This document shows, one piece after another, positions 4,116-62,835 of a stretch of 64,000 bases of DNA. The translations under genes and the position numbers were made by a program. The notes below the pieces were generated by a model. That model had not been told where the DNA came from, did not search any database, and saw only the letters and a list, made by a program, of their open reading frames with translations. Each line of letters starts with the position of its first letter. Position 1 is the first letter of the stretch. Source of the DNA: Octopus vulgaris (Eukaryota); NCBI GenBank assembly GCA_951406725.2, contig OX597814.1, positions 102,672,001-102,736,000 of the forward strand. Reading direction: 5' to 3'.

Positions 4116-5455
<1,340 letters not shown>

Positions 5456-35600: not shown

Positions 35601-35779
35601 TCTCATTATTTTCATAATTCATTCGTTATTTGTACAGCAAATGGATACACACCAAATGTGCAAGGTTAGGTTACTGGTAACCTAACCAAAGAACCAGAGC
35701 ATGATCATTCAGAGTTTAATGTCCTGCAACTAACAAAATATCTCCTTTAAAAAGGGATGACCATTTATGCTGAAGATTT

Positions 35780-36232: not shown

Positions 36233-37769
36233 TATGAAGTTAATACATGAAATTCCATCCCTGGGGTCATGTTCAAAAAGTAAATCATAGCAAGTTCAGA
36301 CTCCAAACAATGATGAAAAGGAAGTCCAAAAAGTGGCAGAGTAAGTTGAGACTTCAAAAATTGAAGAGAAGAAAGTCCAAATGGTGACAGCAACGTGTGT
36401 ATGTGTGTGTGTGGAGAAGGTCCTGACGACATCACAGACAGTTGAATGTGCAAAGGTCGAGGATAAGAAAGTACAGACCGATTGACAGCCAGTAGAGGAT
36501 ACATCCTAGTAAGTGGATTCTTAAAACCTGGAAGAAGAGGATCTCCTGAAGGAGTTACGTCAGTTAGGAAGTAATTGGTAGCAAGTAGGAATTTTCTTGG
36601 AAATTATAACTATTGACCTGCAAATTAACAAGCATAATGATCCTTTGAACATTGTCAAAAAGGTCTACCAAATGCTGTTCAAATGGTATCGAAGTTGTAA
36701 TCTAGAAAAACGGCGACACAAATCATGAAAAGAGGCTTTTAGAGAGAGTGAGTATTTAACTGCCCTTGAATGTCTATCATTAGACAAAGAAGGGAGATGT
36801 GTGTAAATATTGTTGCTCTTTAGTTCCAGGCCTAACTTCACTAAACAGTGACCCATGATTAAATTCCTTCAACCAGAAAGATCCTTTCTTTTCCTAAATG
36901 TAAACGATCCACAACAACATTGCCCAACATATTCTTTAAGGTGGTAAGGTATGAATTGAAGAGGATTTAGCAATTAAATCTTGCAGATCTCTACCATGTA
37001 TTGCCTCCTTTAATAGTTTGGCTCCCTTATTTGAGATTAAGCTTTGAACTAAACAAGTTTGAAATATTCAAAAAAGAAAAAAATGTTTTAAAACATTACC
37101 CCCCTTCCCCACTATCAGACTGAAAGTCGATAGTATAACAAACGAGTATAAAACAAATGTCCCAGATAAACACTTATTTACAAGAACTAAATGTTCATGT
37201 AAGGGTAAGAAAAAAGCTAATGAAATGAAATAGGAACAAACATGGCAAACACATACTGTAACATTTGCAATGAGAAGCCATCTCATCGTATAACATGCTT
37301 CAAGTTACAGCAATCCAACTAATCAGGGAATAAAATATCCTAATGATTCAGAAGTTGTAATCTAGAAAAACGGCCACACAAATCACGAAAAGAGGCTTTT
37401 AGAGAAAGTGAGTGCTTAACTGCCCTTGAATATCTATCATTAGTCAAAGAAGGGAGATGTGTGTAATATATTTTGTCTCTTTAGTTCCAGTCCTAACTTC
37501 ACTAAACAGTGACCCATGATTGGATTCCTTCAACCAGAAACATCCTGTCTTTTCCTAAATGTAAACAATCCACAACAACATTGCCCAACATATTCTTTAA
37601 GGTGGTAAGTTATGAATTGAAGAGGATTTAGCAATTAAATCTTGCAGATCTCTACCGTATATTGACTCCTTTAAAAGTTTGGCTCCCTTATTTTAGATTA
37701 ACCATTGAACTAAAGAACTTTGAAAGGTTCAGAAAAGAATAAAATTAATGTTTTACAACATTACCCGCC

Positions 37770-38289
37770 AGCAGACTGAAAGTCGATAGTATAACAAACG
37801 AGTATAAAACAAATGTCCCAGAAAAACATGTTTACAAGAACTAAATGTTCATACAAGGGTAAGAAAAAAGCTAATGAAATGAAATAGGAACAAACATGGC
37901 AAACACATACTGTAACATTTGCAATGAGAAGCCATCTCATCGTATAACATGCTTCAAGTTACAGCAATCCAACTAATCAGTGAAAAAAATATGCTAACGA
38001 TGTCTGTGGCTAATTTGCTGAAGGAAAAGTTTATTCTATAACTTTGTGGGATATATATTTGTTGATGTGTCTTTTCTTAATATTGATAAGTTTTGAAAAT
38101 GAATCAGGAATATGTTATAAATTTGCAAAATCTAGTTATTGTCCTTTATTTCTAAAACATAAATCATACAGAGTTCACTAAAATATCAGTTTGTAAAAAT
38201 TTATACTGTGTACCAATAGTGGTACATGATGCAGGTTGGGACAGTTACCCATGTACCATATATGGCGCACGATGTGGTTAAAGTGTTAA
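37770..38289 (+). mobile_element. piggyBac right end within the array unit (representative copy)
   Basis: NTYCNICNEKPSHRITCFKLQQSN* (CRD tail, shares ACATTTGCAATGAGAAGCCATCT with 36208-36230); palindromes TGTACCAatagTGGTACA (38209-38226) and TGTACCAtataTGGCGCA (38252-38269); terminus GGTTAAAGTG + TTAA (38286-38289). Confidence 0.75.
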
Positions 38290-39405
38290 GAGAACAGATG
38301 CTTCAATTGGACCTATGCACAGTAACCAAGTGGCCACAACGGTGTTCGTGTGGTTCACAATATCCACTACAGGACTGAAATCCGGAACAGCATCAAGGCC
38401 ACTGCATCACAGCCTTGCCACTGAACTGCATAATGTGGAAGTGTGTAACCAGTGTTTTTGACTGTGTCTCAGGACCACTCGGAAAAATGCAGAGGCTGAT
38501 AGCTAGGGATGAAGGCATAAATTCTGTGGCTCAGGGTCATCTCAGAATAATAGCTAGGGATGCAAACACAAATTCTGTGAACAAAGGCAACAACTGTTTG
38601 CACCTTGCTGTGAAGAAGGGGTTCCATTCTCAGGTTCAATAGTCAAACATTCTAGAGCAATACTCTCACAAGTTCAGACCCTGAAAGGGATGAAGGTTCT
38701 CTGACGTGGTGGTTGCTAGTTATCTAGTCCACTAGAAGGCCGATTATGACTTTAAAAACAAAGGAGACATTACTCCATTAGACCTCCTTAAAAATGCATA
38801 GTCCAAAGGAAAATTAAAGACATTATTCCCACCACAAATACTATGTAGGTTGACTGAAGTTAATACATGAAATTCCATCCCTGGGGTCATGTTCAAAAAG
38901 TAAATCATAGCAAGTTCAGACTCCAAACATTGAAGAAAAGTAAGTTGAGACTTCAGAGATTGAAGAGAAGAAAGTCCAAATGGTGACAGAAACTTGTGTG
39001 TGTGTGAGTTTGTGGAGAAGGTCCTGACGACATCACAGACAGTTGAATGTGCAAAGGTCGAGGATAAGGAAGTACAGACCGAGTGACAGCCAGTAGAGGC
39101 TACATCCCAGTAAGTTGATTCTTAAAACCTGGAAGAAAAGGATCTCCGGAAGGAGTCACGTCAGTTAGGAAGTAATTGGTAGCAAGTAGGAATTTTCTTG
39201 GGAATTAAAACCATTCACAGGCAAATTATCAAGTATAACAATCCTTTGAACATTATGAACATAGTTCAGGAATGATGTGCGATGATTCAGAAGTTGTAAT
39301 CTAGAAAAACGGCCACACAAATCACGAAAAGAGGCTTTTAGAGAAAGTGAGTGCTTAACTGCCCTTGAATATCTATCATTAGTCAAAGAAGGGAGATGTA
39401 TGTAA
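38290..39405 (+). pseudogene. Intronless ankyrin repeat - RING - death domain gene fragment (representative array copy)
   Basis: QGHLRIIARDANTNSVNKGNNCLHLAVKKG (ankyrin); KFHPWGH (decayed RING F-x-PCGH); QLGSNW*QVGIFLGIK (death domain). Multiple stops and frameshifts. Confidence 0.75.
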
Positions 39406-42400
39406 TATATATTGTCTCTTTAGTTCCAGGCCTAACTTCACTAAACAGTGACCCATGATTGGATTCCTTCAACCAGAAACATCCTGTCTTTTCCTAAATG
39501 TAAACAATCCACAACAACATTGCCGAATATATTCTTTAAGTTGGTAAGTTATGAATTGAAGAGGATTTAGCAATTAAATCTTGCAGTTCTCTACCGTATA
39601 TTGACTCCTTTAAAAGTTTGGCTCCCTTATTTGAGATTAACCATTGAACTAAAGAACTTTGAAAGGTTCAGAAAAGAATAAAATTAATGTTTTACAACAT
39701 TACCCGCCAGCAGACTGAAAGTCGATAGTATAACAAACGAGTATAAAACAAATGTCCCAGAAAAACATGTTTACAAGAACTAAATGTTCATACAAGGGCA
39801 AGGAAAAAGCTAATCAAATAAAGTAGGAGCAAACATGGCAAACACTTACTGTGACACTTGCAATTAGAAGCCATCTCATCGTATAACATGCTTCAAGTAA
39901 CAGCAATCCAACTAATCAGGGAATAAAATATGCTAATGATGTCTACGGCTAACTTGCTGAAGGAAAAGTTTATTCTATAACTTTGTGGGATATATATTTG
40001 TTGATGTGTCTTTTCTTAATATTGATAAGTTTTGAAAATGAATCAGGAATACGTTATGAATTTGCAAAATCTAGTTATTGTCCTTCATTTCTAAAACATA
40101 AATCATACAGAGTTCACTAAAATATCAGTTTGTAAAAATTTATACTGTGTACCAATAGTGGTACATGATGCAGGTTGGGACAGTTACCCATGTACCATAT
40201 ATGGCGCATGATGTGGTTAAAGTGTTAAGAGAACATATGCTTCAATTGGACCTATGCACAGTAACCAAGTGTCCACAACGGTGTTCGTGTTGTTCACAAT
40301 ATCCACTGCAGGACTGAAATCCGGAACAGCATCAAGGCCACTGCATCACAGCCTTGCCACTGAACTGCATAATGTGGAAGTGTGTAACCAGTGTTTTTGA
40401 CTGTGTCTCAGGACCACTCGGATAAATGCGGAGGCTGATAGCTAGGGATGAAGGCATAAATTCTGTGGCTCAGGGTCATCTCAGAATAATAGCTAGGGAT
40501 GCAGACACAAATTCTGTGAACAAAGGCAACAATTGTTTGCATCTTGCTGTGAAGAAGGTGTTCCATTCTCAGGTTCAATAGTCAAACATTCTAGAGCAAT
40601 ACTCTCACAAGTTCAGACCCTGAAAGGGATGAAGGTTCTCTGACGTGGTGGTTGCTAGTTATCTAGTCCACTAGAAAGCCAATTATGACTTTAAAAACAA
40701 AGGAGACATTACTCCATTAGACCTCCTTAAAAATGCATAGTCCAAAGGAAAATTAAAGACATTATTCCCACCACAAATACTATGTAGGTTGACTGAAGTT
40801 AATACATGAAATTCCATCCCTGGGGTCATGTTCAAAAAGTAAATCATAGCAAGTTCAGACTCCAAACATTGAAGAAAAGTAAGTCCAGACTGTGGCAGAG
40901 TAAGTTGAGTCTTCAGAGATTGAAGAGAAGAAAGTCCAAATGGTGACAGAAACTTGTGTGTGTGTGAGTTTGTGGAGAAGGTCCTGACGACATCACAGAC
41001 AGTTGAATGTGCAAAGGTCGAGGATAAGAAAGTACAGACCGAGTGACAGCCAGTAGAGGCTACATCCCAGTAAGTTGATTCTTAAAACCTGGAAGAAAAT
41101 GATCTCCGGAAGGAGTCACGTCAGTTAGGAAGTAATTGGTAGCAAGCAGGAATTTTCTTGGGAATTAAAACCATTCACAGGCAAATTATCAAGTATAACA
41201 ATCCTTTGAACATTATGAACATAGTTCAGGAATGATGTGCGATGATTCAGAAGTTGTAATCTAGAAAAACGGCCACACAAATCAAGAAAAGAGGCTTTTA
41301 GAGAAAGTGAGTGCTTAAATGCCCTTGAATATCTATCATTAGTCAAAGAAGGGAGATGTGTGTAATATATTTTGTCTCTTTAGTTCCAGGCCTAACTTCA
41401 CTAAACAGTGACCCATGATTGGATTCCTTCAACCAGAAACATCCTGTCTTTTCCTAAATGTAAACAATCCACAACAACATTGCCGAATATATTCTTTAAG
41501 GTGGTAAGTTATGAATTGAAGAGGATTTAGCAATTAAATCTTGCAGATCTCTACCGTATATTGACTCCTTTAAAAGTTTGGCTCCCTTATTTGAGATTAA
41601 CCTTTGAACAAAAGAACTTTGAAAGGTTCAAAAAAGAATAAAAATAATGTTTTACAACATTACCCGCCAGCAGACTGAAAGTCGATAGTATAACAAACGA
41701 GTATAAAACAAATGTCCCAGAAAAACATGTTTACAAGAACTAAATGTTCATACAAGGGCAAGGAAAAAGATAATCAAATGAAGTAGGAGCAAACATGGCA
41801 AACACTTACTGTGACACTTGCAATTAGAAGCCATCTCATCGTATAACATGCTTCAAGTTACAGCAATCCAACTAATCAGGGAATAAAATATGCTAATGAT
41901 GTCTACGGCTAACTTGCTGAAGGAAAAGTTTATTCTATAACTTTGTGGGATATATATTTGTTGATGTGTCTTTTCTTAATATTGATAAGTTTTGAAAATG
42001 AATCAGGAATACGTTATGAATTTGCAAAATCTAGTTATTGTCCTTCATTTCTAAAACATAAATCATACAGAGTTCACTAAAATATCAGTTTGTAAAAATT
42101 TATACTGTGTACCAATAGTGGTACATGATGCAGGTTGGGACAGTTACCCATGTACCATATATGGCGCACGATGTGGTTAAAGTGTTGAGAGAACATATGC
42201 TTCAATTGGACCTATGCACAGTAACCAAGTGGCCACAACGGTGTTCGTGTGGTTCACAATATCCACTACAGGACTGAAATCCGGAACAGCATCAAGGCCA
42301 CTGCATCACAGCCTTGCCACTGAACTGCATAATGTGGAAGTGTGTAACCAGTGTTTTTGACTGTGTCTCAGGACCACTCAGAAAAATGCAGAGGCTGATA

Positions 42401-44516
42401 GCTAGGGATGAAGGCATAAATTCTGTGGGTCAGGGTCATCTCAGAATAATAGCTAGGGATGCAGACACAAATTCTGTGAACAAAGGCAACAATTGTTTGC
42501 ACCTTGCTGTGAAGAAGGGGTTCCATTCTCAGGTTCAATAGTCAAACATTCTAGAGCAATACTCTCACAAGTTCAGACCCTGAAAGAGATGAAGGTTCTC
42601 TGACGTGGTGGTTGCTAGTTATCTAGTCCACTAGAAAGCCAATTATGACTTTAAAAACAAAGGAGACATTACTCCATTAGACCTCCTTAAAAATGCATAG
42701 TCCAAAGGAAAATTAAAGACATTATTCCCACCACAAATACTATGTAGGTTAACTGAAGTTAATACATGAAATTCCATCCCTGGGGTCATGTTCAAAAAGT
42801 AAATCATAGCAAGTTCAGACTCCAAACATTGAAGAAAAGTAAGTCCAGACTGTGGCAGAGTAAGTTGAGACTTCAGAGATTGAAGAGAAGAAAGTCCAAA
42901 TGGTGACAGAAACTTGTGTGTGTGTGAGTTTGTGGAGAAGGACCTGACGACATCACAGACAGTTGAATGTGCAAAGGTCGAGGATAAGAAAGTACAGACC
43001 GAGTGACAGCCAGTAGAGGCTACATCCCAGTAAGTTCATTCTTAAAACCTGGAAGAAAAGGATCTCCGGAAGGAGTCACGTCAGTTAGGAAGTAATTGGT
43101 AGCAAGTAGGAATTTTCTTGGGAATTAAAACCATTCACAGGCAAATTATCAAGTATAACAATCCTTTGAACATTATGAACATAGTTCAGGGATGACGTGC
43201 AATGATTCAGAAGTTGTAATGTAGAAAAACGGCCACACAAATCAAGAAAAGAGGCTTTTAGAGAATGTGAGTGCTTAAATGCCCTTGAATATCTATCATT
43301 AGTCAAAGAAGGGAGATGTGTGTAATATATTTTGTCTCTTTAGTTCCAGGCCTAACTTTACTAAACAGTGACCGATGATTGGATTCCTTCAACCAGAAAC
43401 ATCCTGTCTTTTCCTAAATGTAAACAATCCACAACAACATTGCCGAATATATTCTTTAAGGTGGTAAGTTATGAATTGAAGAGGATTTAGCAATTAAATC
43501 TTGCAGATCTCTACCGTATATTGACTCCTTTAAAAGTTTGGCTCCCTTATTTGAGATTAACCATTGAACTAAACAACTTTGAAAGGTTCAAACAAGAATA
43601 AAATTAATGTTTTACAACATTACCTGCCAGCAGACTGAAAGTCGATAGTATAACAAACGAGTATAAAACAAATGTCCCAGGAAAACATGTTTACAAGAAC
43701 TAAATGTTCATACAAGGGCAAGGAAAAAGCTAATCAAATGAAGTAGGAGCAAACATGGCAAACACTTACTGTGACACTTGCAATTAGAAGCCATCTCATC
43801 GTATAACATGCTTCAAGTTACAGCAATCCAACTAATCAGGGAATAAAATATGCTAATGATGTCTACGGCTAATTTGCTGAAGGAAAAGTTTATTCTATAA
43901 CTTTGTGGGATATATATTTGTTGATGTGTCTTTTCTTAATATTGATATGTTTTGAAAATGAATCAGGAATATGTTATGAATTTGCAAAATCTAGTTATTG
44001 TCCTTCATTTCTAAAACATAAATCTTACTGAGTTCACTAAAATATCAGTTTGTAAAAATTTATACTGTGTACCAATAGTGGTACATGATGCAGGTTGGGA
44101 CAGTTACCCATGTACCATATATGGCGCACGATGTGGTTAAAGTGTTAAGAGAACATATGCTTCAATTGGACCTATGCACAGTAACCAAGTGTCCACAACA
44201 GTGTTCGTGTGGTTCACAATATCCACTACAGGACTGAAATCCGGAACAGCATCAAGGCCACTGCATCACAGCCTTGCCACTGAACTGCATAATGTGGAAG
44301 TGTGTAACCAGTGTTTTTGACTGTGTCTCAGGACCACTCGGAAAAATGCGGAGGCTGATAGCTAGGGATGAAGGCATAAATTCTGTGGCTCAGGGTCATC
44401 TCAGAATAATAGCTAGGGATGCAGACACAAATTCTGTGAACAAAGGCAACAACTGTTTGCATCTTGCTGTGAAGAAGGGGTTCCATTCTCAGGTTCAATA
44501 GTCAAACATTCTAGAG

Positions 44517-47347
44517 CAGGGGTCTCCAAAGTACGGCCCGCCAAGGTTTTTAATCCAGCCCGCCGAGCTGTCCTCCAAAATTATAAAACAAATGTCGAAA
44601 AACAAGCCTTGCCGAAATCATACAAAAACAAATATACTTTACACCCCTTTTAATACGTTTGACAAATATAGTACAGCAAATAGACGCAAGACGACGCTAA
44701 TTGATTTGCCATCAATTAATGTCTTTAAATTGCGCCGGCGAATTAAAAATTTATACACTAAACTTTAGTGTAAATATAGGTTCTTTTCCACTCCCCCCGT
44801 TTTAACTGACCCATCAGAACCACCATAAAATGAATTAACTTCGCTATGGAGCTACCTATCATTCATCTTAGATAATAGGCGATTGTCAGTGAGATGGATG
44901 GTGCTGCTTACAATGAAGCAGAGATTCAATTTCTAGCTTTATTGATGTCGCAGAAAAGTCAACCTATTCCGTCAACTGTCGAGAGAGCAGATACGACAAG
45001 TATGACGTTAATAAAAGTCCCGTGCCTAGTATAATAAAAGAAGACAAATATCGATTTATCGATGTCACCTACATCTCACGAGCGATGAATAGAGAGGGTT
45101 GAGCCTGACGTTGTGTGGTGGTTTCTAATCCTGGTGCAGTCGCCAATCAGCGTGGAGTAAAGTTCGATGCGCATTCCGTCAGTCAGCACAGACTTGGCGT
45201 TTTCGTTGTGCACAAGTGTGAGTCGTCGTCGCTGCCGAAGTGAATGCACGTATCGAGTGACCTGTGAATATTGTTTTTACTTGTTTCGTCCTTTTACATA
45301 TATTGTCGAGCAAAATCTGTCGACCCATGGTAAAAATGTTAGCTCAAGGAAGAAAACGAAAAATCGACTCTGAGTGTAGAGTTTTTAAGGAACAATGGAA
45401 CATAGACTATTTTGTCATAGAGTCAAACAACAAGGCACTATGCGTTATATGCACCGACACAATTGCAGTACTTAAAGAGTACAACATTCGGAGACATTAT
45501 GAAAAAAAGCATTCATCACAGTACTACCAATTCATTGGACAGCTACGTAAAGAGAAATTTGACAAATTAAAGAAGAATTTATCATCAATGCAGTTTGTTT
45601 TCAAGAAGAAGGCTGTAGAAAAAGAGAGAGCAACAAGAGCAAGCTTCCATGTTGCTAACCTTTTGGCGAAGAAAGGTAAGCCATTTACAGATGGTGAACT
45701 TATCAAAAAGTGCTTGAATGAGGTAGCTAAGGAAATGTGTCCAGAAAACGTAGATTTATTTTCCGCAATTAGTCTTTCTGCGAACACTGTTGCTCGTAGG
45801 GTTGAACATATTGAAAGAAATATTAAATCACAGCTAAAAGACAAAGCCAGCAAGTTTGTATGCTTTTCTGTTGCACTTGATGAGTCAATTGATGTATCAG
45901 ACACATCCCAATTGTTATTGTTCATCAGAGGAATAAATGCCAATTTTGAGATTACTGAGGAACTTGTATCTGTGCACAGCATGCATGGAACAACAACAGG
46001 CATAGATATTTTTAGAGAAGTGGAAAAGTCAGTGGCTGAGTATAATTTGGAATGGAAAAAACTAAAATGCATAACAACAGATGGTGGCAGAAATATGTGT
46101 GGAACCAAAAAGGGCTTAGTTGGGCAAATTAACAAAGTAATTGAGAATTCTGGTGGATTGAAACCTTTGGTATTGCATTGTATTCTTCATCAGCAAGCAC
46201 TGTGTGGAAAGCATCTTGATTTATCATCTGTATTAGATCCTGTGATTTCCACTGTTAACTACATAAGATCTCATGGACTCAAACATCGCCAATTTCGTGA
46301 TTTCTTGGAGGAAATGAATGCTGAGTTTCCAGACCTACCTTACTATACTTCAGTAAGATGGCTTAGCTATGGAAAAATTCTGGCTAGATTTTTGAGCTTC
46401 GAACTGAAATTGAAATATTTTTAAATGAGAAAAACCATTCACAGGTGTTGCTCAAAGACAGTGAATGGCTCTGGAAATTAGCATTTTCAGCCGATTTAAC
46501 TATGCATCTCAATGATTTCAACCTACGGATACAAGGTGAAACTTCACTCATCTGTGATTTGTACTCAAAGGTGAAAGCTTTTCGTAAGAAATTAATACTA
46601 TTTGAAAGTCAGTTAACAAGAAGCTGCTTTACTCATTTTTCACAATGTGACAAATATAGACAGGAAGCTGCCACTCCATTTCCAAACTTGTTTGCTCAAG
46701 ATGTCATTTTAGCTTTGAAACAACAGTTTGAAGAACGTTTTTCTGATCTTGATGCATGTTCTTCAAAACTAAGAATTTTTGAAAATCCATTTAACTCTGT
46801 TATTGGAGACTTACCTTCTGAGTTACAAATGGAAGTTATTGATTTGCAATCCAATGACATCCTGAAGGACAAATATAAAGAGGGAAATTTGATTGAATTC
46901 TACAAATGCCTTCCATCCGACCAATTTCTTCATTTAAGGAGGTTTGCCTGTGAATTCATTTCAGTTTTTGGCACCACATATTTGTGTGAGAAGACTTTTT
47001 CAAAGATGAAATACACAAAATCCTGCTACAGATCACAATTGTCTGATGAACATTTAAATGCATTGCTTGTTATTGGAACCACTCATTTTGAACCTTAGTT
47101 GGACAAAATTTTGTCAGAAATGAAACAATTTCATGTTTCCCCTATTGATCAAAGTTAAAAAAAACATGTTAATTGTTACTGATATTATATACATTGTGAT
47201 TATGTACTGAATAAATAACCTTTTTTAATTATTAATTCACTATTTATTTATATTATTTTGGTAAAATAAATAATTTAGAACCTTGGCTCCCGTAGCTTTA
47301 AAAATTCAGCAATGTGGCCCTCCGCTGGAAAACTTTGGAGACCCCTG
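44517..47347 (+). mobile_element. Full-length hAT DNA transposon (Charlie/Buster group, SPIN/OC1-like), 2831 bp
   Basis: Perfect 16-bp TIR CAGGGGTCTCCAAAGT; 8-bp TSD TTCTAGAG at 44509-44516 and 47348-47355; sister units show the empty site CATTCTAGAGCAATAC. Confidence 0.97.
45327..47158 (+). pseudogene. hAT transposase (GTF2IRD2/SPIN-like), one frameshift and one late nonsense codon
   Basis: KRKIDSECRVF, CVIC..RRHYEKKH (BED-like finger), ALDES, TTDGG, HCILHQ, VRWLS, TYLCEKTFS. T5 run at 46389-46393 splits the two ORFs; TAG at 47096-47098, frame continues to TAA at 47156-47158. Confidence 0.92.
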
Positions 47348-49399: not shown

Positions 49400-50360
49400 A
49401 GGTGTGTTATCATTACTTTTTGCTGTGTCTCAGGGTCACCTCAGAATAATGCAAAAGTTGATAGCTAGAGATGCACAAATAAATTCTGTGCCTCAGGGTC
49501 ATCTCAGAATAACCCACAGATTAATAGCTAGGGATACAGGCACAAATTCTGAGAACAAAGGCAACAATTATTTGCACCTTGCTGTAAAGAAGGGGTTCCA
49601 TTCTCAGGTTCAATAGTCAAACATTCTAGAGGAATACTGCACCGAGCTCAAACTCAGAAACGGATAAAGGCTCTCTGATGTGGTGGTTGCTAGTTATCTG
49701 GTCCACCAGTGAGCTAATTTTGACTTTAAAAACAAAGGAGACATAACTGCAGTGGACCTCCTTATAAATGCAAAGTCCAAAGAAAAATTAAATACATTAT
49801 TCCCACTACAAATACTATGTAGGTTGTCTGAAGTTAATACATGAAATTCCATCCCTGGGGTCATGTTCAAACAGTAAATCATAGCAAGTTCAGACTCCAA
49901 ACATTGAAGAAAAGGAAGTCCAAACAGTGGCAGACTAAGTTGAGACTTCAATGATTGAAGAGAAGAAAGTCCAAATGGGGACCGCAACATGTGTGTGTGG
50001 AGAAGGTCCTGACGACATCACAGGCAGTTTAATGCGCAAAGGAGAAGAAAAGAAAGTAATGGCTGATTCACAGCCATTAGAGGCTACATGCCAGAATGCT
50101 GATTCTAAAAACCTGGAAGAGAAGGATCTCCTAAAGGTGTCACGTCAGTTAGGAAGCAATTGGTAGCAAGTTGGAATATTCTTGGGAATTAAAACTATTG
50201 ACGTGCAAATTATCAAGCATAACTATCCTTTGAACATTGTCAAATAGATCAACCAAATGCTGTACGATGTAATCTAGAAAAACAGCCATACAAACGACAA
50301 AAAGAGGCTTTAAAAGAAAGTGAGTGCTTAACCACACTTAAATATCTATCACTAGACAAA
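49400..50360 (+). pseudogene. Best-preserved ankyrin-RING-death domain copy in the array
   Basis: FAVSQGHLRIMQKLIARDAQINSV..GNNYLHLAVKKGFHS; VVVASYLVHQ*ANFDFKNKGDITAVDLL; KNLEEKDLLKVSRQLGSNW*QVGIFLGIKTIDVQIIKHNYPLNIVK*INQML. Confidence 0.75.
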
Positions 50361-53300
50361 GAAGGGAAATGCTTCAATTGGACCTATGCACAGTAACCAA
50401 GTGGCCACAACAGTGTCCTTATGGTTCACAATATTCACAACTGGACTGAATCCCGGCACAGCATCAAAGCCACTGCATCACAGCATTGCCACTGAACTGC
50501 ATAATGTTGAGGTGTGTAACAGAGTGCTTTTTGATGTGTCTCAGGGATACTTCGGAATGATGCAGAGGTTGATAGCTAGGGATGCAGGCAAAAATTCTGT
50601 AATCAAAGAAGACAACAATAGCAAATAAAATATGCTAAGATTGTCTGTTTCTAATTTGTTAAAGGATAAGTATATCCTATAACTTTTTGTATTTATATTT
50701 GTTGATTTGCTTTTTGTTGATATTTTACTTTATTATAATTGATAAGTTTTGATCAGGCATCGGCAACCTGCTGCACATAAGCTCCACAGAGCGTTGCTAC
50801 TAAACTACATAACGTAGAGGTGTGTTATCATTAGTTTTTGCTATGTCTGAAGGTCACCGCAGAACAATCGAAAAGTTGAAAGCTAGAGATGCACACATAA
50901 ATTCTGTGCCTCAGGTTCATCTCAGAATTACCCACAGATTAATAGCTAGGGATGCAGACACAAATTCTGTGAACAAAGGCAACAACTGTTTGCACCTGGC
51001 TGTGAAGACGGGGGTTCCATTCTCAGGTTCAATAGTGAAACATTCTAGAGGAATACTTCACTGAGCTCAAACTCAGAAACGGATTAAGGCTCTCTGATGT
51101 AGTGATTGCAAGTTATCTAGTCCACCAGAGAGCCTATTTTGACCTCAAAAACAAAGAAGACATAACTTCAGTGGACCTCCTTATAAATGCAAAGTCCAAA
51201 GAAAAATTAAAGATGTTATTCCCACCACAAATACTATGTAGGTTGTGTGAAGTAAATACATGAAATTCCATCCCTGGAGTCATGTTCAAAGAGTAAATCA
51301 TAGCAAGATCAGACTCCAAACATTGAAGAAAAAGAAGTCCAAACTGTGGCAGAGTAAGTTAAGACTTCAAAGATTGAAGAGAAAAAGTCCAAATGGTGAT
51401 AGCAACGTGTGTGTGTGTGAGTGTGTGTGGAGAATGTCCTGACAACACCACAGATAGTTGAATGTGCAAAGGTCGAGGACCAGAAAGTACAGACCGATTA
51501 ACAGCCAGTAGAGGCTACATCCCAGTAAGTTGATTCTTAAAATCTGGAAGAGTTACGTCAGTTAGGAAGTAATTGGTAGCAACTTGGAATTTTCTTGAGA
51601 ATTAAAACTATTCACCGGCAATTTATCAAGCATAACTATCCTTTGAACATAGTCAAATAGATCTACCAAATGCTGTTCAAATAGTACAAAAGTTGTAATC
51701 TAGAAAAACTGCCGCACAAATCACGAAAAGAGGCTTTTAAAGAAACCGAATGTTTCAATGCACTTAAATATCTATCACTAGACAAAGAAGGGAGATGTGT
51801 GTAAATGTTGTTGCTCTTTAGTCACAGGCCTTACTTCACTATACAGTGACCCATGATTATATTCCTTCAACCAGAAACATCCTGTCTTTTCCTAAATGTA
51901 AACAATCCACAACAACATTGCCGAATATATTCTTTAAGGTGGTAAGTTAGGAATTGAAGCGGATTTAGCAATTAAATCTTGCAGATCTCTACCGTATATA
52001 GACTCCTTTAATAGTTTGGCTCCCTTATTTGAGATTAACCTTTGAACTAAACGACTTTTAAATGTCCAAAAAAGAAAAACAATACTGATTCACATCGCTA
52101 CCCGCCAGCAGACTGAAAGTCGATAGTATAACAAACGAGTATAAAACAAATGTCCCAGAAAAACGTGTTTACAAGAACTAAATGTTCATACAAGGGCAAG
52201 GAAAAAGCTAATCAAATGGGGTAGGAACAAACGTGGCAAACACATACTGTAACATTTGCAATGAGAAGCCATCTCATCGTATAACATGCTTCAAGTTACA
52301 GCAAGCCAACTAATCAGGGAATAAAATATGCTAACAATGTCTGTTGCTAATTTGCTGAAGGAAAAGTTTATTCTATAACTTTTTGGGATATATATTTGTT
52401 GATGTGTCTTTTCTTTTGAAAATGAATCAGGAATATGTTATAAATTTGCAAAATCTTGTTACTGTCCTTTATTTCTAAAATATAAATCATACAGAGTTCA
52501 CTAAAATATCAGTTTGTAAATATTTATACTGTGTACCAAAAGTGGTACATGATGCAGGTGGGACAGTTACCCATGTACCATATATGGCGCACGATGTGGT
52601 TAAAGTGTTAAGAGAACTTATAATCAGGCGATGCGTCAATTGGACCTATGCACAGTAACCGAGTGGCCACAACAGTGTTCTTGTGGTTCACAATATCCAC
52701 AACTGGACTGAAATCCGGAACAGCATCAAGGCCACTGCATCACAGCCTTGCCACTGAACTGCATAATATGGAAGTGTGTAACAAATGTTTTTTGCCGTGT
52801 CTCAGGAACACTTAGGAATAATGCACCAGTTAATAGCTAGGGATGCAGGCACAAATTCTGTGAACAAAGGCTACAATTGTTTGCAACTTGCTGTGAAGAA
52901 GGGGCTCCATTCTTAGGTTCAATAGTGAAACATTCTAGAGGAATACTCTCACGAGTTCAGACTCAGAAAGCGATAAAGGCTCTCTGATGTGGTGGTTGCT
53001 AGTTATCTAGTCCACTGGAAAGCCATTTATGACTTTAAAAACAAAGGAGACATTACTCCATTGGACCTCCTTAAAAATGCGAAGTCCAAAGAAAATCTTA
53101 AAGACATTATTCCCACCACAAATACTATGTAGGTTGGGCTGAAGTTAATACATGAAATTCCATCCCTGGGGTCAGGTTCAAAAAGTAAATCATAGCAAGT
53201 TCAGACTCCAAACAGTGGCAGAGTAAGTTGAGACTTCAAAGATTGAAGAGAAGAAAGTCCAAATGTGTGTGTGTGTGGAAAAGGTCCTGACGACATCACA

Positions 53301-56300
53301 GACAGTTGAATGTGCAAAGGTCGAGGACAAGAAAGTACAGACCAGTAGAGGCTACATCCCAGTAAGTTGATTCTTAAAACCTGGAACAAAAGCATTTCCT
53401 GAAGGAGTCACGTCAGTTAGGAAGTAATTGGTAGCAAGTGGGAATTTTCTTGGGAATTAAAACTATTGACCTGCAAATTATCAAGCATAACAATCCTTTG
53501 AACATTGTCAAAATAGATCTACCAAATGCTGTACAAATGGTTCAGAAGTTGTAATCTAGAAAAACGGCCACACAAATCACGAAAAGAGGCTTTTAAACAA
53601 ACCGAATGTTTCAATGCACTTAAATATCTATCACTAGACAAAGAAGGGAGATGTGTGTAAATGTTGTTGCTCTTTAGTCACAAACCTTACTTCACTAATC
53701 CGTGACCAATGATTAAATTCCTTCACCCAGAATCATCCTGTCTTTTCCTAAATGTAAACAATCACAGGTTCAATGGTCAAACATTCAAGAGGAATACTGC
53801 ACTGAGCTCAAACTCAGAATGGGATAAAGGCTCTCTGATGTGGTGGTTGCTAGTTATCTAGTCCACCAGGGAGCCTATTTTGACTTCAAAAACAAAGAAG
53901 ACATAACTTCAGTGGACCTCCTTATAAATGTAAAGTCCAAAGAAAAATTAAAGACATTATTCCCACCACAAATACTATGTAGGTTGTGTGAAGTGAATAC
54001 ATGAAATTCCATCCCTGGAGTCATGTTCAAAAAGTAAATCAGAGCAAGATCAGACTCCAAACATTGAAGAAAAGGAAGTCCAAACTGTGGCAGAGTAAGT
54101 TGAGACTTCAAAGATTGAAGAGAAGAAAGTCCAAATGGTGACAGCAACGTGTGTGTGTGTGTGTGTGTATGTGGAGAATGTCCTGACGACATCACAGACA
54201 GCTGAATGTGCAAAGGTCGAGGACAGGAAAGCACAGACTGATTGACAGCCAGTAGAGGCTACATCCCAGTAAGTTGATTCTTAAAACCTGGAAGAGTCAC
54301 GTAAGTTAGGAAGTAATTGGTAGCAAGTTGGAATTTTCTTGAGAATTAAAACTATTGACCTGCAAATTATCAAGCATAACAATCCTTTGAACATTGTCAA
54401 ATAGATCTACCAAATGCTGTTCAAATGGCATCAAAGTTGTAATCTAGAAAAACGGCCACACAAATCACGAAAATAGACTTTTAAAGAAACTGAGTGTTTA
54501 ACTGCCCTTGAATGTCTATCATGACTCAAAGAATGGAGATGTGTGTAAATATTGTTGCTCTTTAGTCACAGGCCTTACTTCACTATACAGTGACCCATGA
54601 TTAAATTCCTTTAACCATAAACATCTTGTCTTTTCCAAAATGTAAACAATCCACAACCACATTGCCCAACATATTCTTTAAGGTGGTAAGTTATGAATTG
54701 AAGAGGATTTAGTAATTAAATCTTGAAGATCTCTACCATATATTGACTCCTTTAAAATTTTGTCTCCCTCATTTGAGATTAACCGTTGAACAAAAGAACT
54801 TTGAAAGGTTCAAAAAAGAATAAAAATAATGTTTTACAACATTACCCGCCAGTAGACTGAAAGTCGATAGTATAACAAACAAGTATAAAACAAATGTCCC
54901 AGAAAAACGTGTTTACAAGAACTAAATGTTCATACAAGGGCAAGAAAAAAGCTAATCAAATTAGGTAGGAACAAACATGGCAAACACTTACTATGACACT
55001 TGCAATGAGAAGCCATCTCATCATATAACATGCTTCATGTTACAGCAATCCAACCAATCAGGGAATAAAATATGCTAACGATGTCTTTAGCTAATCTGCT
55101 GAAGGAAAAGTTTATTCTATAACTCTTGGGGATCTATATTTGACGATGTGTCTTTTCTTATTCTTGATAAGTTTTGAAAATGAATCAGGCATAAGTTATA
55201 AATTTGCAAAATCTAGTTATTGTCCTTCATTTCTAAAACATAAATCATACAGAGTTCATTAAAATATCAGTTTGTAAAACTTTATACTGTGTACCAATAG
55301 TGGTACATGATGCAGGTTGGGACAGTTACACATGTACCACATAGGGCGCACGATGTGGTTACAGTGTTAAGAGAACTTATGATCAAGTGATGCTTCAATT
55401 GGACCTATGCACAGTAACCGAGTGGCCACAACAGTGTTCTTGTGGTTCACAATATCCACAACTGGACTGAAATCCGGAACAGCATCAAACCACTGCATCA
55501 CAGCCTTACCACTGAACTACATAAGGTGGAAGTGTGTAACCAGTGTTTTTTGCCGTTTCTCAGGAACACTTTAGAATAATGCACCAGTTAATAGCTAGGG
55601 ATGCAGGCATAAATTTTGTGTCTCAGAGTCATCTCAGAATAATAGCTAGGAATGCAGACACATATTCTGTGAACAAAGGCTACAATTGTTTACAACTTGC
55701 TGTGAAGAAGGGGCTCCATTCTTAGGTTCAATAGTGAAACATTCTAGAGGAATACTCTCACGAGTTCAGACTCAGAAAGCGATAAAGGCTCTCTGATGTG
55801 GTGGTTGCTAGTTATCTAGTCCACTGGAAAGCCATTTATGACTTTAAAAACAAAGGAGACATTACTCCATTGGACCTCCTTAAAAATGCGAAGTCCAAAG
55901 AAAATCTTAAAGACATTATTCCCACCACAAATACTATGTAGGTTGGGCTGAAGTTAATACATGAAATTCCATCCCTGGGGTCAGGTTCAAAAAGTAAATC
56001 ATAGCAAGTTCAGACTCCAAACATTGAAGAAAAGGAAGTCCAAACAATGGCAGACTAAGTTGAGACTTCAAAGATTGAAGAGAAGAAAGTCCAAATGGGG
56101 ACAGCAATGTGTGTGTGTGTGGAAAAGGTCCTGACGACATCACAGACACTTGAATGTGCAAAGGTCGAGGACAAGAAAGTACAGACCAGTATAGGCTACA
56201 TCCCAGTAAGTTGATTCTTAAGACCTGGAACAAAAGCATCTACTGACACAGACACTTGAATGTGGAAAGGTCGAGGACAAGAAAGTACAAACAGATTAAC

Positions 56301-59300
56301 AACCAATAGAGGCTACATCCCAGTAAGTTGATTCTTAAGACCTGGAACAAAAGCATCTCCTGAAGGAGTCACGTCAGTTAGGAAGTAATTGGTAGCAAGT
56401 TGGAATTTTCTTGGGAATTAAAACAATTCACCGGCAAATTATCAAGCATAACTATCCTTTGAACATAGTCAAATAGATCTACCAAATGCTGTTCAAATTG
56501 TATAAAAGTTGTAATGTAGAAAAACGGCCACACAAATCACGAAAAGAGGCTTTTAAAGAAACCGAATGTTTCAATGCACTCAAATATCTATCACTAGACA
56601 AAGAAGGGAGATGTGTGTAAATGTTGTTGCTCTTTAGTCACAAACCTTACTTCACTAAACCGTGACCAATGATTATATTCCTTCACCCAGAATCATCCTG
56701 TCTTTTCCTAAATGTAAACAATCACAGGTTCAATAGTCAAACATTCTAGAGGAATACTGCACTGAGCTCAAACTCAGAATGGGATAAAGGCTCTCTGATG
56801 TGGTGGTTGCTAGTTATCTAGTCCACCAGAGAGCCTATTTTGACTTCAAAAACAAAGAAAACATAACTTCAGTGGACCTCCTTATAAATGTAAAGTCCAA
56901 AGAAAAATTAAAGACATTATTCCCACCACAAATACTATGTAGGTTGTGTGAAGTGAATACATGAAATTCCATCCCTGGAGTCATGTTCATAAAGAAAATC
57001 ATAGCAAGATCAGACTCCAAACATTGAAGAAAAGGAAGTCCAAACTGTGGCAGAGTAAGTTGAGACTTCAAAGATTGAAGAGAAGAAAGTCCAAATGGTG
57101 ACAGCAACGTGTGTGTGTGTGTGTATGTGGAGAATGTCCTGACGACATCACAGACAGCTGAATGTGCAAAGGTCGAGGACAGGAAAGCACAGACTGATTG
57201 ACAGCTAGTAGAGGCTACATCCCAGTAAGTTGATTCTTAAAACCTGGAAGAAAAGGATATCCGGAAGGAGTCACGTCAGTTAGGAAGTAATTGGTAGCAA
57301 CTTGGAATTTTCTTGAGAATTAAAACTATTGCCCTGCAAATTATCAAGCATAACAATCCTTTGAACATTGTCAAATAGATCTACCAAATGCTGTTCAAAT
57401 GGCATCAAAGTTGTAATCTAGAAAAACGGCCACACAAATTACGAAAAGAGGCTTTTAAACAAACCGAATGTTTCAATGCACTTAAATATCTATCACTAGA
57501 CAAAGAAGGGAGATGTGTGTAAATGTTGTTGCTCTTTAGTCACAGGCCTTACTTCACTAAACCGTGACCAACGATTAAATTCCTTCACCCAGAATCATCC
57601 TGTCTTTTCCTAAATGTAAACAATCACAGGTTCAATAGTCAAACATTCAAGAGGAATACTGCACTGAGCTCAAACTCAGAATGGGATAAAGGCTCTCTGA
57701 TGTGGTGGTTGCTAGTTATCTAGTCCACCAGAGAGCCTATTTTGACTTCAAAAACAAAGAAGACATAACTTCAGTGGACCTCCTTATAAATGTAAAGTCC
57801 AAAGAAAAATTAAAGACATTATTCCCACCACAAATACTTCAATTGGACCTATGTACAGTAACCGAGTGGCCACAACAGTGTCCTTATGGTTCACAATATC
57901 CACAACTGGATGACTCCCGGAACAGCATCAAGGTCACTGTATCACAGCCTTGTCACTGAACTGCATAATGTGGAGGTGTGTAACCAGTGTTTTTTGCTGT
58001 GTATCAGGGACACTTCAGACACAAATCCTGTGAACAAAGGCAACAATTGTTTGCACCTTGCTGTGAAGAAGGGGTTCCATTCTTAGGTTCAATAGTCAAA
58101 CATTCTAGAGGAATACTGTCACGAGTTCAAACTCAGAAAGGGATAAAGGCTATCTGATGTGGTGGTTATTAGTTATCTAGTCCACTAGAAAGCCAATTAT
58201 GACTTTAAAAACGAAGGAGACATAACTCCATTGGACCTCCTCAAAAATGCAAAGTCCAAAGAAAAACTTAAAGACATTATTCCCACCACAAATACTATGT
58301 AGGTTGCCTGAAGTTAATACATGAAATTCCATCCCTGGGGTCATGTTCAAAAAATAAATCATAGCAAGTTCAGACTCCAAACATTGAAGAAAAGGAAATC
58401 CAAACTGTGGCAGAGTAAGTTGAGACTTCAAAGATTGAAGAGAAGAAAGTCCAAATGGTGACAGCAACGTGTGTGTGTATGTGGAGAATGTCCTGACGAC
58501 ATCACAGACAGCTGAATGTGCAAAGGTCGAGGACAGGAAAGCACAGACTGATTGACAGCCAGTAGAGGCTACATCCCAGTAAGTTGATTCTTAAAACCTG
58601 GAAGAAAAGGATATCCGGAAGGAGTCACATCAGTTAGGAAGTAATTGGTAGCAACTTGGAATTTTCTTGAGAATTAAAACTATTGCCCTGCAAATTATCA
58701 AGCATAACAATCCTTTGAACATTGTCAAATAGATCTACTAAATGCTGTTCAAATGGCATCAAAGTTGTAATCTAGAAAAACGTCCGCACAAATCACAAAA
58801 AGAGGCTTTTAAAGAAACTGAGTGTTTAACTGCCCTTGAATGTCTATCATGACTCAAAGAATGGAGATGTGTGTAAATATTGTTGCTCTTTAGTCACAGG
58901 CCTTACTTCACTAAACACTAACCCATGATTAAATTCCTTTAACCATAAACATACCGTCTTTTCCAAAATGTAAACAATCCACAACCACATTGCCCAACAC
59001 ATTCTTTAAGGTGGTAAGGTATGAATTGAAGAGGATTTAGCAATTAAATCTTGCAGATCTCTACTGTATATTGACTCCTTTAAAAGTTTGGCTCCCTTAT
59101 TTGAGATTAACCTTTGAACAAAAGAACTTTGAAAGGTTCAAAAAAGAATAAAAATAATGTTTTACAACATTACACGCCAGCAGACTGAATGTCGATAGTA
59201 TAACAAACGAGTCTAAAACAAATGTCCCAGAAAAACATGTTTACAAGAACTAAATGTTCATACAAGGGCAAGGAAAAAGCTAATCAAATTAGGTAGGAAC

Positions 59301-62300
59301 AAACATGGCAAACACTTACTGTGACATTTGCAATGAGAAGCCATCTCATCGTATAAAATGCTTCAAGTGACAGCAATCCAACTAATCAGGGAATAAAATA
59401 TGCTAACGATGTCTGTTGTTAATTTGCTGAAGGAAAAGTTTATTCTATAACTCTTTGGGATCTATATCTTTTGATGTGTCCTTTCTCATTATTGATAAGT
59501 TTTGAAAATGAATCAGGAATATGTTATAAATTTGCAAAATCTAGTTATTGTCCCTCATTTCTAAAACATAAATCATACAGAGTTCATTAAAATATCAGTT
59601 TGTAAAAATTTATACTGTGTACCAATAGTGGTACATGATGCAGGTTGGGACAGTTACACATGTGCCATATATGGCGCACGATGTGGTTAAAGTGTTAAGA
59701 GAACATATGATCAAGCGATGCTTCAATTGGACCTATGTACAGTAACCGAGTGGCCACAACAGTGTCCTTATGGTTCACAATATCCACAACTGGACTGACT
59801 CCCGGAACAGCATCAAGGTTACTGTATCACAGCCTTGTCACTGAACTGCATAATGTGGAAGTGTGTAACCAGTGTTTTTTACTGTGTCTCAGGGACACTT
59901 TCGAATAGTGCACCAGTTAATAGCTAGGGATGCAGGCATAAATTCTGTGTCTCAGGGTCAACTCAGAATAATAGCTAGGGATGAAGAAACAAATTCTTTG
60001 AACAAAGGCTACAATTGTTTGCACCTTGCTGTGAAGAAGGGGTTCCATTCTTAGGTTTAATAGTCAAATATTCTAGGGGAATACTGTAACGAGTTCAAAT
60101 TCAGAAAGGGATAAAGGCTCTCTGATGTGGTGGTTGCTAGTTATCTAGTCCACTGGAAAGCCATTTATAACTTTAAAAACAAAGGAGACATTACTCTATT
60201 GGACCTTCTTAAAAATGCAAAGTCCAAAGAAAAATTAAAGACATTATTCCCACCACAAATACTATGTAGGTTGTCTGAAGTTAATACATGAAATTCCATC
60301 CCTGGAGTCATGTTCAAAAAGTAAATCATAGCAAGTTCAGACTCCAAACATTGAAGAAAAGTAAGTCCAAATAGTGGCAGACTAAGTTGAGACTTCAAAG
60401 ATTGAAGAGAAGAAAGTCCAAATGGTGACAGAAACTTGTGTGTGTGTGTGTGGAGAAGGTCCTGACGACATCACAGACAGTTGAATGTGCAAAGGTTGAG
60501 GACAAGAAAGTACAAACAGATTAACAACCAGTAGAGACTACATCCCAGTAAGTTGATTCTTAAAACCTGGAAGAAAAGTATCTCCTGAAGGAGTCACGTC
60601 AGTTAGGAAGTAATTGGTAGCAAGTAGGAATTTTCTTGGAAATTATAACTATTGACCTGCAAATTATCAAGCATAACTATCCTTTGAACATTGTCAAATA
60701 GATCTACCAAATGCTGTTCAAATGGATTAGAATTTGTAATCTAGAAAAACAGCCACACAAATCACGAAAAGCGGCTTTTAAAGAAACCGAGTGTTTCAAT
60801 GCACTTAAATATCTATCACTAGACAAAGAAGGGAGATGTGTGTAAATGTTGTTGCTCTTTAGTCCAAGGCCTAACTTCACTACACCGTGACCTATGATTA
60901 AATTCCTTCAACCAGAATCATCCTGTCTTTTCCTAAATGCAAACATTCCGCAACCACATTGCCGAATATATTCTTTAAGGTGGTAAGTTATGAATTGAAG
61001 AGGATTTAGCAATTAAATCTTGCAGATCTCTACCGTATATTGACTCCTTTAATAGTTTGGCTCCCTTATTTGAGATTAACCTTTGAATAAAAGAACTTTG
61101 AAAGGTTCAAAAAAGAAAAAAAATAATGTTTTACAACATTACCCGCCAGCAGATTGAAAGTCAATAGTATAATTAACGAGTATAAAACAAATGTCCCAGA
61201 AAAACGTGTTTACAAGAACTAAATGTTCATACAAGGGCAAGAAAAAAGCTAATCAAATTAGGTAGGAACAAACATGGCAAACACTTACTATGACACCTGC
61301 AATGAGAAGCCATCTCATCATATAACATGCTTCGTGTTACAGCAATCCAACCAATCAGGGAATAAAATATGCTAACGATGTCTGCTGCTAATTTGCTGAA
61401 GGAAAAGTTTATTCTATAACTTTTGGGGATCTATATTTGTTGATGTGTCTTTTCTTATTATTGATAAGTTTTGAAAATGAATCAGGAATATGTTATAAAT
61501 TTGCAAAATCTAGTTATTGTCCTTTATTTCTAAAACATAAATCATATAGAGTTCATTAAAATATCAGTTTGTAAAAACATATACTGTGTACCAATAGTGG
61601 TACATGGTGCAGGTTGGGACAGTTACCCATGTACTATATATGGCGCACGATGTGGTTTAAGTGTTAAGAGAACATATGATCAAGTGATGCTTCAATTGGA
61701 CCTATGTACAGTAACCGAGTGGCCACAACAGTGTCCTTATGGTTCACAATATCCACAACTGGATGACTCCCGGAACAGCATCAAGGTCACTGTATCACAG
61801 CCTTGTCACTGAACTGCATAATGTGGAGGTGTGTAACCAGTGTTTTTTGCTGTGTATCAGGGACACTTCAGACACAAATCCTGTGAACAAAGGCAACAAT
61901 TGTTTGCACCTTGCTGTGAAGAAGGGGTTCCATTCTTAGGTTCAATAGTCAAACATTCTAGAGGAATACTGTCACGAGTTCAAACTCAGAAAGGGATAAA
62001 GGCTATCTGATGTGGTGGTTATTAGTTATCTAGTCCACTAGAAAGCCAATTATGACTTTAAAAACGAAGGAGACATAACTCCATTGGACCTCCTCAAAAA
62101 TGCAAAGTCCAAAGAAAAACTTAAAGACATTATTCCCACCACAAATACTATGTAGGTTGCCTGAAGTTAATACATGAAATTCCATCCCTGGGGTCATGTT
62201 CAAAAAATAAATCATAGCAAGTTCAGACTCCAAACATTGAAGAAAAGGAAATCCAAACTGTGGCAGAGTAAGTTGAGACTTCAAAGATTGAAGCGAAGAA

Positions 62301-62835
62301 AGTCCAAATGGTGACAGAAACTTGTGTGTGTGTGAGTTTGTGGAGAAGGTCCTGACGACATTACAGACAGTTGAATGTGCAAAGGTCGAGGATAAGAAAG
62401 TACAGACCGATTGACAGCCAGTAGAGGCTACATCCCAGTAAGTTGATTCTTAAAACCTGGAAGAAAAGGATCTCCGGAAGGAGTCACGTCAGTTAGGAAG
62501 TAAATGGTAGCAAGTCGGAATTTTCTTGGGAATTAAAACCATTCACAGGCAAATTATCAAGTATAACAATCCTTTGAACATTATGAACATAGTTCAGGAA
62601 TGACGTGCAATGGTTCAGAAGTTGTAATCTAGATAAACGGCCACACAAATCACGAAAAGAGGCTGTTAAAGAAAGTAAGTGTTTAACTGCCCTTGAGTAT
62701 CTATCATTAGTCAAAGAAGGGAGATGTGTGTAAATGCTGTTGCTCTTTAATCCCAGGCCTAACTTCACTAAACAGTGACCCATGATTAAATTCCTTCAAC
62801 CAAAATCACCCTGTCTTTTCCTAAATGTAAACAAC

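Follow-up and report, generated by a model that had tools for sequence, protein, structure and literature searches.

A macrosatellite in the Octopus vulgaris genome that probably arose by tandem duplication of a dead ankyrin-RING-death-domain retrocopy and an adjoining piggyBac right end

We analyzed a 64,000-nucleotide stretch of the Octopus vulgaris genome (contig OX597814.1, positions 102,672,001 to 102,736,000; hereafter the window, with positions counted from its first base) that carries a tandem array of units of about 2 kb. The unit combines the right end of a piggyBac transposon with a dead, spliced and 5'-inverted retrocopy of a gene whose relatives encode ankyrin (ANK) repeats, a RING finger and a death domain, and we consider it likely that this combination was amplified by tandem duplication and unequal exchange, and not by transposition. 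A second array lies 114 Mb away in a segmental duplicate. The array constitutes a legible record of the birth of a macrosatellite from junk, in which the steps (retrocopy, transposon end, tandem duplication, segmental duplication, separate homogenization and ectopic capture) can largely be put in order from the sequence.

Structure of the Array and Its Unit

The initial annotation of the window had proposed a ~1.96-kb unit repeated in tandem at positions 36,233-62,835. Self-comparison bore this out, placing the array at 36,230-62,836 with a whole-unit period of 1,939-1,969 bp (successive element ends are spaced 1,939, 1,960, 1,960, and 1,969 bp apart). The longest period reported by TRF was 500, so the array unit was missed by this program. 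With its kilobase-sized units arranged head to tail, the array has the layout of a macrosatellite. About 14 copies had been counted, a number that holds for the gene core, since the RING-linker, death-domain and second-ANK modules are each present 14 times, but not for the chimera as it had been described: the 3' untranslated region (UTR) and the cysteine-rich tail occur 10 times each, and the piggyBac 3' end is found with 9 of the 14 modules. Many units are truncated or rearranged; identities of 98-99% are confined to the block at 38.8-48 kb, and the other units, often truncated, are 85-96% identical. The exact terminal sequence GGTTAAAGTG is present six times in the window.

The layout of a representative unit is given in Table 1. 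Its first part had been described as ~520 bp with two palindromes and a TTAA; the palindromes and the end stand, but this part consists of ~385 bp of piggyBac sequence and ~150 bp of an unrelated fragment that we term repeat X. What had been taken for a ~300-bp trailer comprises the ~57-bp flank of the TTAA, the 5' exons of the retrocopy in inverted orientation, and its first sense ANK sequence.

The 2,831-bp hAT transposon that splits the array (zf-C2H2_12, E 3e-9; Dimer_Tnp_hAT, E 3e-7) is near-intact, carries a zinc finger of the Spin-doc type, and may belong to the Charlie/SPIN group. Since it is present in one unit only, it likely inserted once the left block had ceased to expand. At 49,221-49,335 and 50,624-50,724, the piggyBac 3' UTR occurs in older variants that are nearer to the sequence of the dispersed miniature elements described below than the main units are. 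These variants suggest an early layer of the array.

Table 1. Positions of the array, of the parts of a representative unit and of the adjoining elements in the window
Feature	Position	Strand	Evidence or remark
pB-A, decayed piggyBac transposase at the left edge of the array	34498..36230	+	DDE_Tnp_1_7, E 8.7e-16 on 34,498-34,836
Left junction, piggyBac cysteine-rich tail to RING remnant of the retrocopy	36215..36250	+	Joint in 4/4 runs; spanned by contigs in 4/4 runs
Entire array (14 RING/death modules and 9 piggyBac 3' ends; truncated units frequent)	36230..62836	+	Self-comparison, module tally
hAT transposon, young, inside one unit	44517..47347	+	16-bp perfect terminal inverted repeats, 8-bp target-site duplication TTCTAGAG, transposase encoded by two frames
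Unit part 1, piggyBac right end (latter half of cysteine-rich tail, 3' UTR, pair of hairpins, terminal inverted repeat)	59310..59694	+	
TTAA target site adjoining the terminal inverted repeat	59695..59698	+	
Spacer of ~57 bp, TTAA to retrocopy	59699..59755		No significant match to sense ANK
5' part of the retrocopy in inverted orientation (upstream ANK exons, spliced)	59756..59877	-	tblastn
Sense retrocopy, last ankyrin repeats	59869..60255	+	Ank Pfam matches, paralog alignment; 2.6-4.0 kb paralog intron absent
RING remnant (truncated, frameshifted) and linker	60256..60563	+	Frameshift-aware alignment to P0012 and P0021
Death domain; nearly all copies share its in-frame stops	60564..60824	+	Internal 2.1-2.6 kb intron absent
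Coding end, 3' UTR and poly(A) remnant	60825..61124	+	Paralog homology stops at 61,109
Repeat X fragment; its end abuts the piggyBac tail of the next unit (unit junction)	61125..61278	+	78-90% to loci on C2, C9, C14 and C19
LINE reverse-transcriptase fragment cutting off the last unit	62837..63500	+	RVT_1, E 5.7e-8; same junction at the sister locus

The Gene Part Is a Processed Retrocopy

Judged by its sequence, the gene part of the unit is a spliced, poly(A)-tailed and 5'-inverted processed retrocopy. Introns are cleanly missing at three junctions, each displayed against four paralogs, with 3 extra nucleotides at the ANK-RING junction. The paralogs possess introns of 2,558-4,048 bp at ILDK|YC, of several kb before the RING exon and of 2.1-2.6 kb within the death domain, and the array unit reads through all three positions. 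At the other end of the copy, the homology to the 3' ends of seven paralogs stops where a run of A residues starts, and this run is present in all eight units displayed.

In the ~120 bp upstream of the sense ANK sequence, the minus strand codes for the ANK exons that precede it. When 30 family proteins were compared by tblastn with three copies of this segment, 54 matches fell on the minus and 2 on the plus strand (best E 9e-7), and in shuffle tests of the DNA 0-63 of 1000 shuffles scored as high for the inverted strand versus 36-927 of 1000 for the forward strand. Exons that are joined in the inverted part lie 4.5-10 kb apart in the paralogs; hence, this part is spliced as well. The codon at which the inverted exons end is about the one with which the sense part opens, and this inverted-then-sense geometry is that of twin priming, known from L1 and from 3 of 23 human processed pseudogenes (PMC12016303). 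We rejected an extension of the inverted part up to the TTAA, as no significant match was found: 1280, 343, and 163 of 2000 shuffles (three copies) scored as high as the intervening spacer did against sense ANK.

Death of the retrocopy preceded its amplification, since an in-frame stop at 60,618 is shared by 25 of 25 copies; further stops at 60,561 (24 of 25), 60,549 (23 of 25) and 60,522 (23 of 24) are nearly as widespread. The longest stop-free aligned stretch comprises 155 amino acids in one copy of the sister array and at most 75 amino acids in copies of the window. Pfam matches of the window copies are weak, all lying below the cut-off (Death, E 0.0014-0.052; Ank, E 0.05-0.16), and those of one sister-array copy lie just above it (Ank_4, E 9e-5; Death, E 1e-4). 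The description of this part as ~1.1 kb of decayed, intronless ANK-RING-death coding sequence thus stands with regard to family homology and decay, and a Pfam search indeed yields Ank and Death, but the RING is represented only by its first CxxC and a truncated remnant, for which no Pfam RING match was obtained in three frames (copy at 40,780-40,901), and the piggyBac tail is likewise without a match. We predict that the array has no function at the protein level.

The Parent Family

An exon on C6 (C and L numbers are our handles for contigs and loci) led to 30 of 75 candidate proteins, all of them named by their source as Octopus, mostly "E3 ubiquitin-protein ligase MIB2-like", and carrying Ank, zf-C3HC4_3 and Death; one of them, P0001, shows 100% identity to two C6 exons. 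Aligned with the 3' half of the family proteins, the unit has about 35-50% amino acid identity (tblastn, down to E 2e-50), and its ankyrin repeats and death domain stand in the order typical of the family, whose members also possess the RING (PF13920). The living members are genes with several exons and are located on C1, C5, C6, C10, C29, C30, and C31. The unit shares their exon junctions and 3' UTR, and is an intronless, dead copy of their 3' half. True Mind bomb 2 carries MIB/HERC2 and ZZ domains; a Pfam scan of P0012 returned Ank, RING and Death families only, with neither MIB/HERC2 nor ZZ, and the MIB2 name looks like an automatic label.

A match on C10 was rejected as the parent gene since it is an isolated fragment of 114 bp. 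It corresponds to a piece of the inverted ANK segment (L028:5232-5346, C10:42.19 Mb), is up to 93% identical to it and lies between inverted repeats in (AT)n tracts, an apparent capture by a small inverted-repeat element. On C30, at ~5.096, 5.112, and 5.121 Mb (L029, L030, and L081), a variant ANK exon of the family forms separate 129-bp tandem repeats upstream of a RING exon, several of the repeat copies being in open frame.

The Transposon Part Is a piggyBac Right End

The piggyBac part of the unit terminates with GGTTAAAGTG followed by TTAA, and has two hairpin-forming palindromes just inside the terminus (59,618-59,635 and 59,664-59,675). Its last ~214 bp are common to seven dispersed short elements, located on C2, C4, C7 (two), C14, C17, and C32, with 77-93% identity. 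Six of the seven stop at the same terminal base, followed by TTAA (five) or TTAG (one) and by unrelated flanks; the seventh is truncated. Both ends are kept in five elements, which are flanked by TTAA on both sides in four cases and by TTAG on both sides in the fifth, and an 8-bp terminal inverted repeat (TIR), CACTTTAA, is found at both ends. Because the terminal base is shared and the TTAA or TTAG is duplicated, the terminus of the unit is a genuine element end of the piggyBac/TTAA type, as had been proposed in the initial annotation. TIRs starting with CAC occur in some piggyBac lineages. The TIR found here starts with CACT and not with the motif CC[C/T]T described for piggyBac (PMC2872659).

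The dispersed relatives (L053-L057, L060, and L061) represent a low-copy, TTAA-flanked family of MITEs (miniature transposable elements with inverted repeats) with a core of ~320-390 bp; no autonomous partner of this family was found in the genome searches. Searches for relatives of pB-A and of the piggyBac end yielded only the two array loci and the seven short elements; an exact-pattern search for the end gave at least five matches, a lower bound as known copies were missed.

The left edge of the array is formed by pB-A, a decayed piggyBac transposase. A frame of pB-A that is open from 35,862 onward crosses the CxxC motifs, enters the cysteine-rich tail and ends at the array junction, and its last 37 nucleotides are 97% identical to the start of the piggyBac part of the unit. 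From this frame, which runs into the very nucleotides that open the unit part, we infer that the unit carries pB-A's own right end. A Pfam search of the cysteine-rich tail gave no zinc-ribbon match. An unrelated high-copy insertion interrupts pB-A at 34,860-35,650, and does so at both array loci.

Unit Junction and Breakpoints

Upstream of the 37-nucleotide match, the unit does not continue as pB-A but as repeat X (score 155, reached by 0 of 1000 shuffles), a dispersed, low-copy sequence without a Pfam family in six frames. The unit junction thus joins repeat X to the middle of the cysteine-rich tail, ~385 bp inside the piggyBac element. We tallied 17 distinct junction events, equal to 27 breakpoints, and none of the 27 falls at the TIR or the TTAA. 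On both sides of the first partial unit (36,194-36,230 and near 37,250) stands a ~37-bp direct repeat that derives from the cysteine-rich tail, and a deletion of ~1 kb probably removed the head of the first unit at the left junction. Further copies of repeat X are present at L058, L059, L062, L063, and C16:33.07 Mb, with long inverted duplications in L058 and L063.

The Sister Array

The sister array is located at C1:216,930,106-216,965,171 (L015-L018). Its flanks are 90-96% identical to those of the window in most blocks (one 83%, one 88%), and the match covers about 10 kb on the left side and about 24 kb on the right, the LINE (long interspersed element) junction being shared as well. It comprises 11 core modules with periods of ~3.6 and ~3.4 kb. 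The 11 sister copies form one clade (support 100/99), and identity amounts to 96.6% within the sister array, 90.5% within the window array and 89.8% between the two; the sister array was homogenized separately. Since copies of the window array have diverged from one another about as much as from those of the sister locus, it seems that amplification set in around the time of the segmental duplication or earlier.

The longer period of the sister array reflects extra sequence, including a ~1.1-kb genomic intron-exon-intron piece that is 87-96% identical to living paralogs. This piece joins 13 nucleotides inside the TIR, with a few bases of microhomology at the joint. Of four paralogs compared, the one on C1 (216.74 Mb), ~190 kb upstream, fits the junction bases best; the C31 paralogs are equally or slightly more similar over the captured intron, and both are candidate donors. 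Six sister units carry a 703-bp insert that is absent from the other loci compared. We considered the TIR-like motif before the TTAA of the sister units as host ANK sequence (an empty site by microhomology), and rejected this since four paralogs diverge there.

Proposed Origin and Alternative Explanations

These data are best accommodated by a course of events that we regard as probable. An mRNA of the family was copied into DNA, as the missing introns, the poly(A) remnant and the 5' inversion indicate, presumably by a LINE via twin priming. A piggyBac right end, taken to be that of pB-A, stands ~57 bp upstream and a repeat X fragment stands after the poly(A) remnant; either the piggyBac or the retrocopy could have inserted first. 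The copy already carried stops before its amplification. A founding tandem duplication of ~2 kb, with breakpoints in the cysteine-rich tail and in repeat X, would have created the first repeat, and unequal exchange together with short deletions may have produced the 14 whole or partial units. The region was duplicated segmentally, the sister array being homogenized on its own and taking up the 1.1-kb piece of a living paralog, and the hAT and LINE insertions break the array today. The array is most likely a neutral fossil.

Several observations weigh against this reconstruction. Neither natural end of the array survives, so that the founding single-copy arrangement is reconstructed and not seen. 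The left end of pB-A was not found at either locus, no left TIR was found in the unit or its flanks, and genome searches revealed no full-length or autonomous piggyBac with this end. A close parent gene was not found either, the best paralogs being 66-80% identical (best 40 candidates scored); thus, the genome search proposed initially did return a second array and short elements with the same end, but neither a full piggyBac nor a close parent. No target-site duplication of the retrocopy was seen by eye when the 5' spacer was compared with the sequence after the poly(A), the copy being old and rearranged. The ~57-bp spacer is without an assigned origin, one repeat X copy has an A-run of its own at the adjoining position, which slightly weakens the poly(A) sign, and repeat X shows a faint similarity to pB-A (score 37, 14 of 1000 shuffles). 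Three of the 27 breakpoints lie no more than 25 bp from the TTAA (a post hoc test, P~0.03), and one sequencing run (X14) lacks a depth excess over the array, its depth being flat across flank and array.

The clustering near the TTAA bears on the idea that the orphan piggyBac end, next to what would still be a retrocopy, was a hotspot of breaks made in trans by a transposase, and that these seeded rearrangements and the capture of the paralog piece in the sister array. The position of the capture joint inside the TIR, two other junctions that resume ~20 bp past the TTAA, and the retention of the TIR in most units that reach it are in keeping with this. The enrichment, however, vanishes at 50 bp (P 0.16) and 100 bp (P 0.53), the cleavage position itself has no breaks, the capture joint shows microhomology, and an intact cognate transposase was not found in the genome searches; we consider such a hotspot unlikely. 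An extended form of this idea, in which the orphan end as a transposase-cut site made the array grow and caused the sister array to take up and multiply the paralog piece, yielding a multi-copy small-RNA or gene-conversion template against the immune-like ANK-RING-death family, is a speculation to which we give little credence.

We are similarly doubtful, on balance, that the unit was formed elsewhere and arrived either as a DNA circle that integrated into pB-A via homology in the cysteine-rich tail or as a retrocopy inside a Pack-type piggyBac. The ~37-bp direct repeat around the first partial unit could be a trace of such an integration, and the loss of the right array end leaves room for a second pB-A end; but neither a donor locus nor a single-copy unit was found, nor a left TIR in the unit or flanks, and duplication in place followed by one deletion yields the same 37-bp repeat in fewer steps.

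Quite improbable is the original proposal that a piggyBac inserted at a TTAA within a genomic ANK-RING-death gene and that this one-ended junction was amplified by one-ended or rolling-circle transposition. It rightly recognized a piggyBac-type terminus with its TTAA and tandem amplification, and arrangement in tandem is possible for piggyBac and for MITEs of the piggyBac type (PMC2872659). The coding part, however, is intronless and ends in poly(A), and the TTAA lies outside the coding sequence, ~57 bp upstream of the inverted 5' end of a spliced retrocopy; therefore, the piggyBac did not split a gene. A unit junction inside the element and the lack of breakpoints at the TIR or TTAA argue against one-ended or rolling-circle transposition, and unequal exchange, the other route named initially, is favored. 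Transposition would furthermore predict dispersed, TIR-ended units, and among the matches listed there are only the two arrays and no dispersed whole unit.

Support From Public Sequencing Runs

Parts of the unit occur in 20 public runs from 11 studies, and every one of the 30 bins of a unit is covered in four runs, each of a different study. Three of these four runs also yielded the head-to-tail joint. Summed depth over nine array bins, relative to the single-locus bin 36,018-36,139, was ~24 in X6, ~18 in X10, ~21 in X1, and 1.4 in X14; these ratios were calculated by hand and summed contig depth is no copy number, but the first three fit 14 plus 11 copies. The library type or a low-copy individual are possible reasons for the flat depth of X14. 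No RNA runs are listed among the public runs that hold the unit, and X1, guessed to be RNA, covers the intergenic flank as DNA would.

An assembly artefact, with the array or the second locus being an over-expanded repeat or an uncollapsed haplotype, would agree with the depth of X14 and with the fact that no listed contig spans a whole unit (contig data only), but is scarcely credible given that the units differ by 1-15% and form structured subfamilies, that the loci differ in unit structure and, for most blocks of their flanks, by 4-10% in sequence, that the locus-specific junctions of both loci occur in all four runs, and that array depth is raised in three of the four runs X1, X6, X10, and X14.

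Comparison With Known Tandem Arrays

The unit had been said to match no named kind of satellite, a view that does not hold, since the composite macrosatellites TAF11-like and D4Z4 are comparable. The human TAF11-like macrosatellite at 5p15.1 is described as a composite with a gene-like open reading frame (ORF) and a disrupted DNA transposon (PMC5687341). Its ORF of 594 bp is described as coding (PMC5687341), whereas all copies of the octopus array contain stops; furthermore, the octopus unit possesses a 5'-inverted retrocopy and a piggyBac end, and its arrays are short (14 and 11 modules). D4Z4/DUX4 resembles the octopus array in that every unit of a multi-kb tandem array holds a retrogene (PMC5849414, PMC3616921, PMC5687341), and in having a near-identical sister array elsewhere (PMC10620044). 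DUX4, however, is intact and expressed, whereas the octopus retrocopy has no intact ORF, was dead before amplification and shows no sign of function.

With processed pseudogenes formed by twin priming the gene part shares the lack of introns, the poly(A) and an inverted 5' segment that ends at the start of the sense part; it differs from the human cases reported (PMC12016303) in its molluscan host, in that no target-site duplication was recovered, and in its later tandem amplification. Tandems derived from transposable elements include double-insertion dimers and a hobo array (PMC5932611) as well as coral arrays of piggyBac-type CMITEs, in which the spacer between elements is repeated too (PMC2872659). 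A DNA-transposon terminus within a tandem array is common to these and to the octopus array (PMC5932611, PMC2872659), but the tandems described there repeat whole elements, whereas only ~385 of ~1,960 bp of the octopus unit are transposon, from one end, with an internal junction; terminus-to-terminus junctions as in dimers are not seen, and the unit has no left end.

Among the papers listed in our literature searches, none deals with this array or with the octopus ANK-RING-death family. The array works like known composite, retrogene and transposon tandems, and is likely a fossil and not a novel mobile element. It reveals neither a new mechanism of transposition nor a functional protein; it points to LINE-type retrocopying of mRNA with a 5' inversion of the twin-priming type in a mollusc, and to exchange of DNA between a pseudogene array and living members of the large octopus ANK-RING-death family. 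Annotators should be aware that such arrays inflate the counts of this family.

Other Features of the Window

Apart from the array, the window contains a C2H2 zinc-finger array with a period of 84 bp and about 16 fingers (4,077-5,458), similar arrays being present to the right of both loci. A GC-rich tandem repeat of 63-67 bp is found inside a dispersed repeat in both orientations (9,007-9,740 and 28,608-28,993). A LINE with an endonuclease frame of 517 amino acids occupies the minus strand at 28,603-32,007 and is absent at the aligned position of the sister locus.

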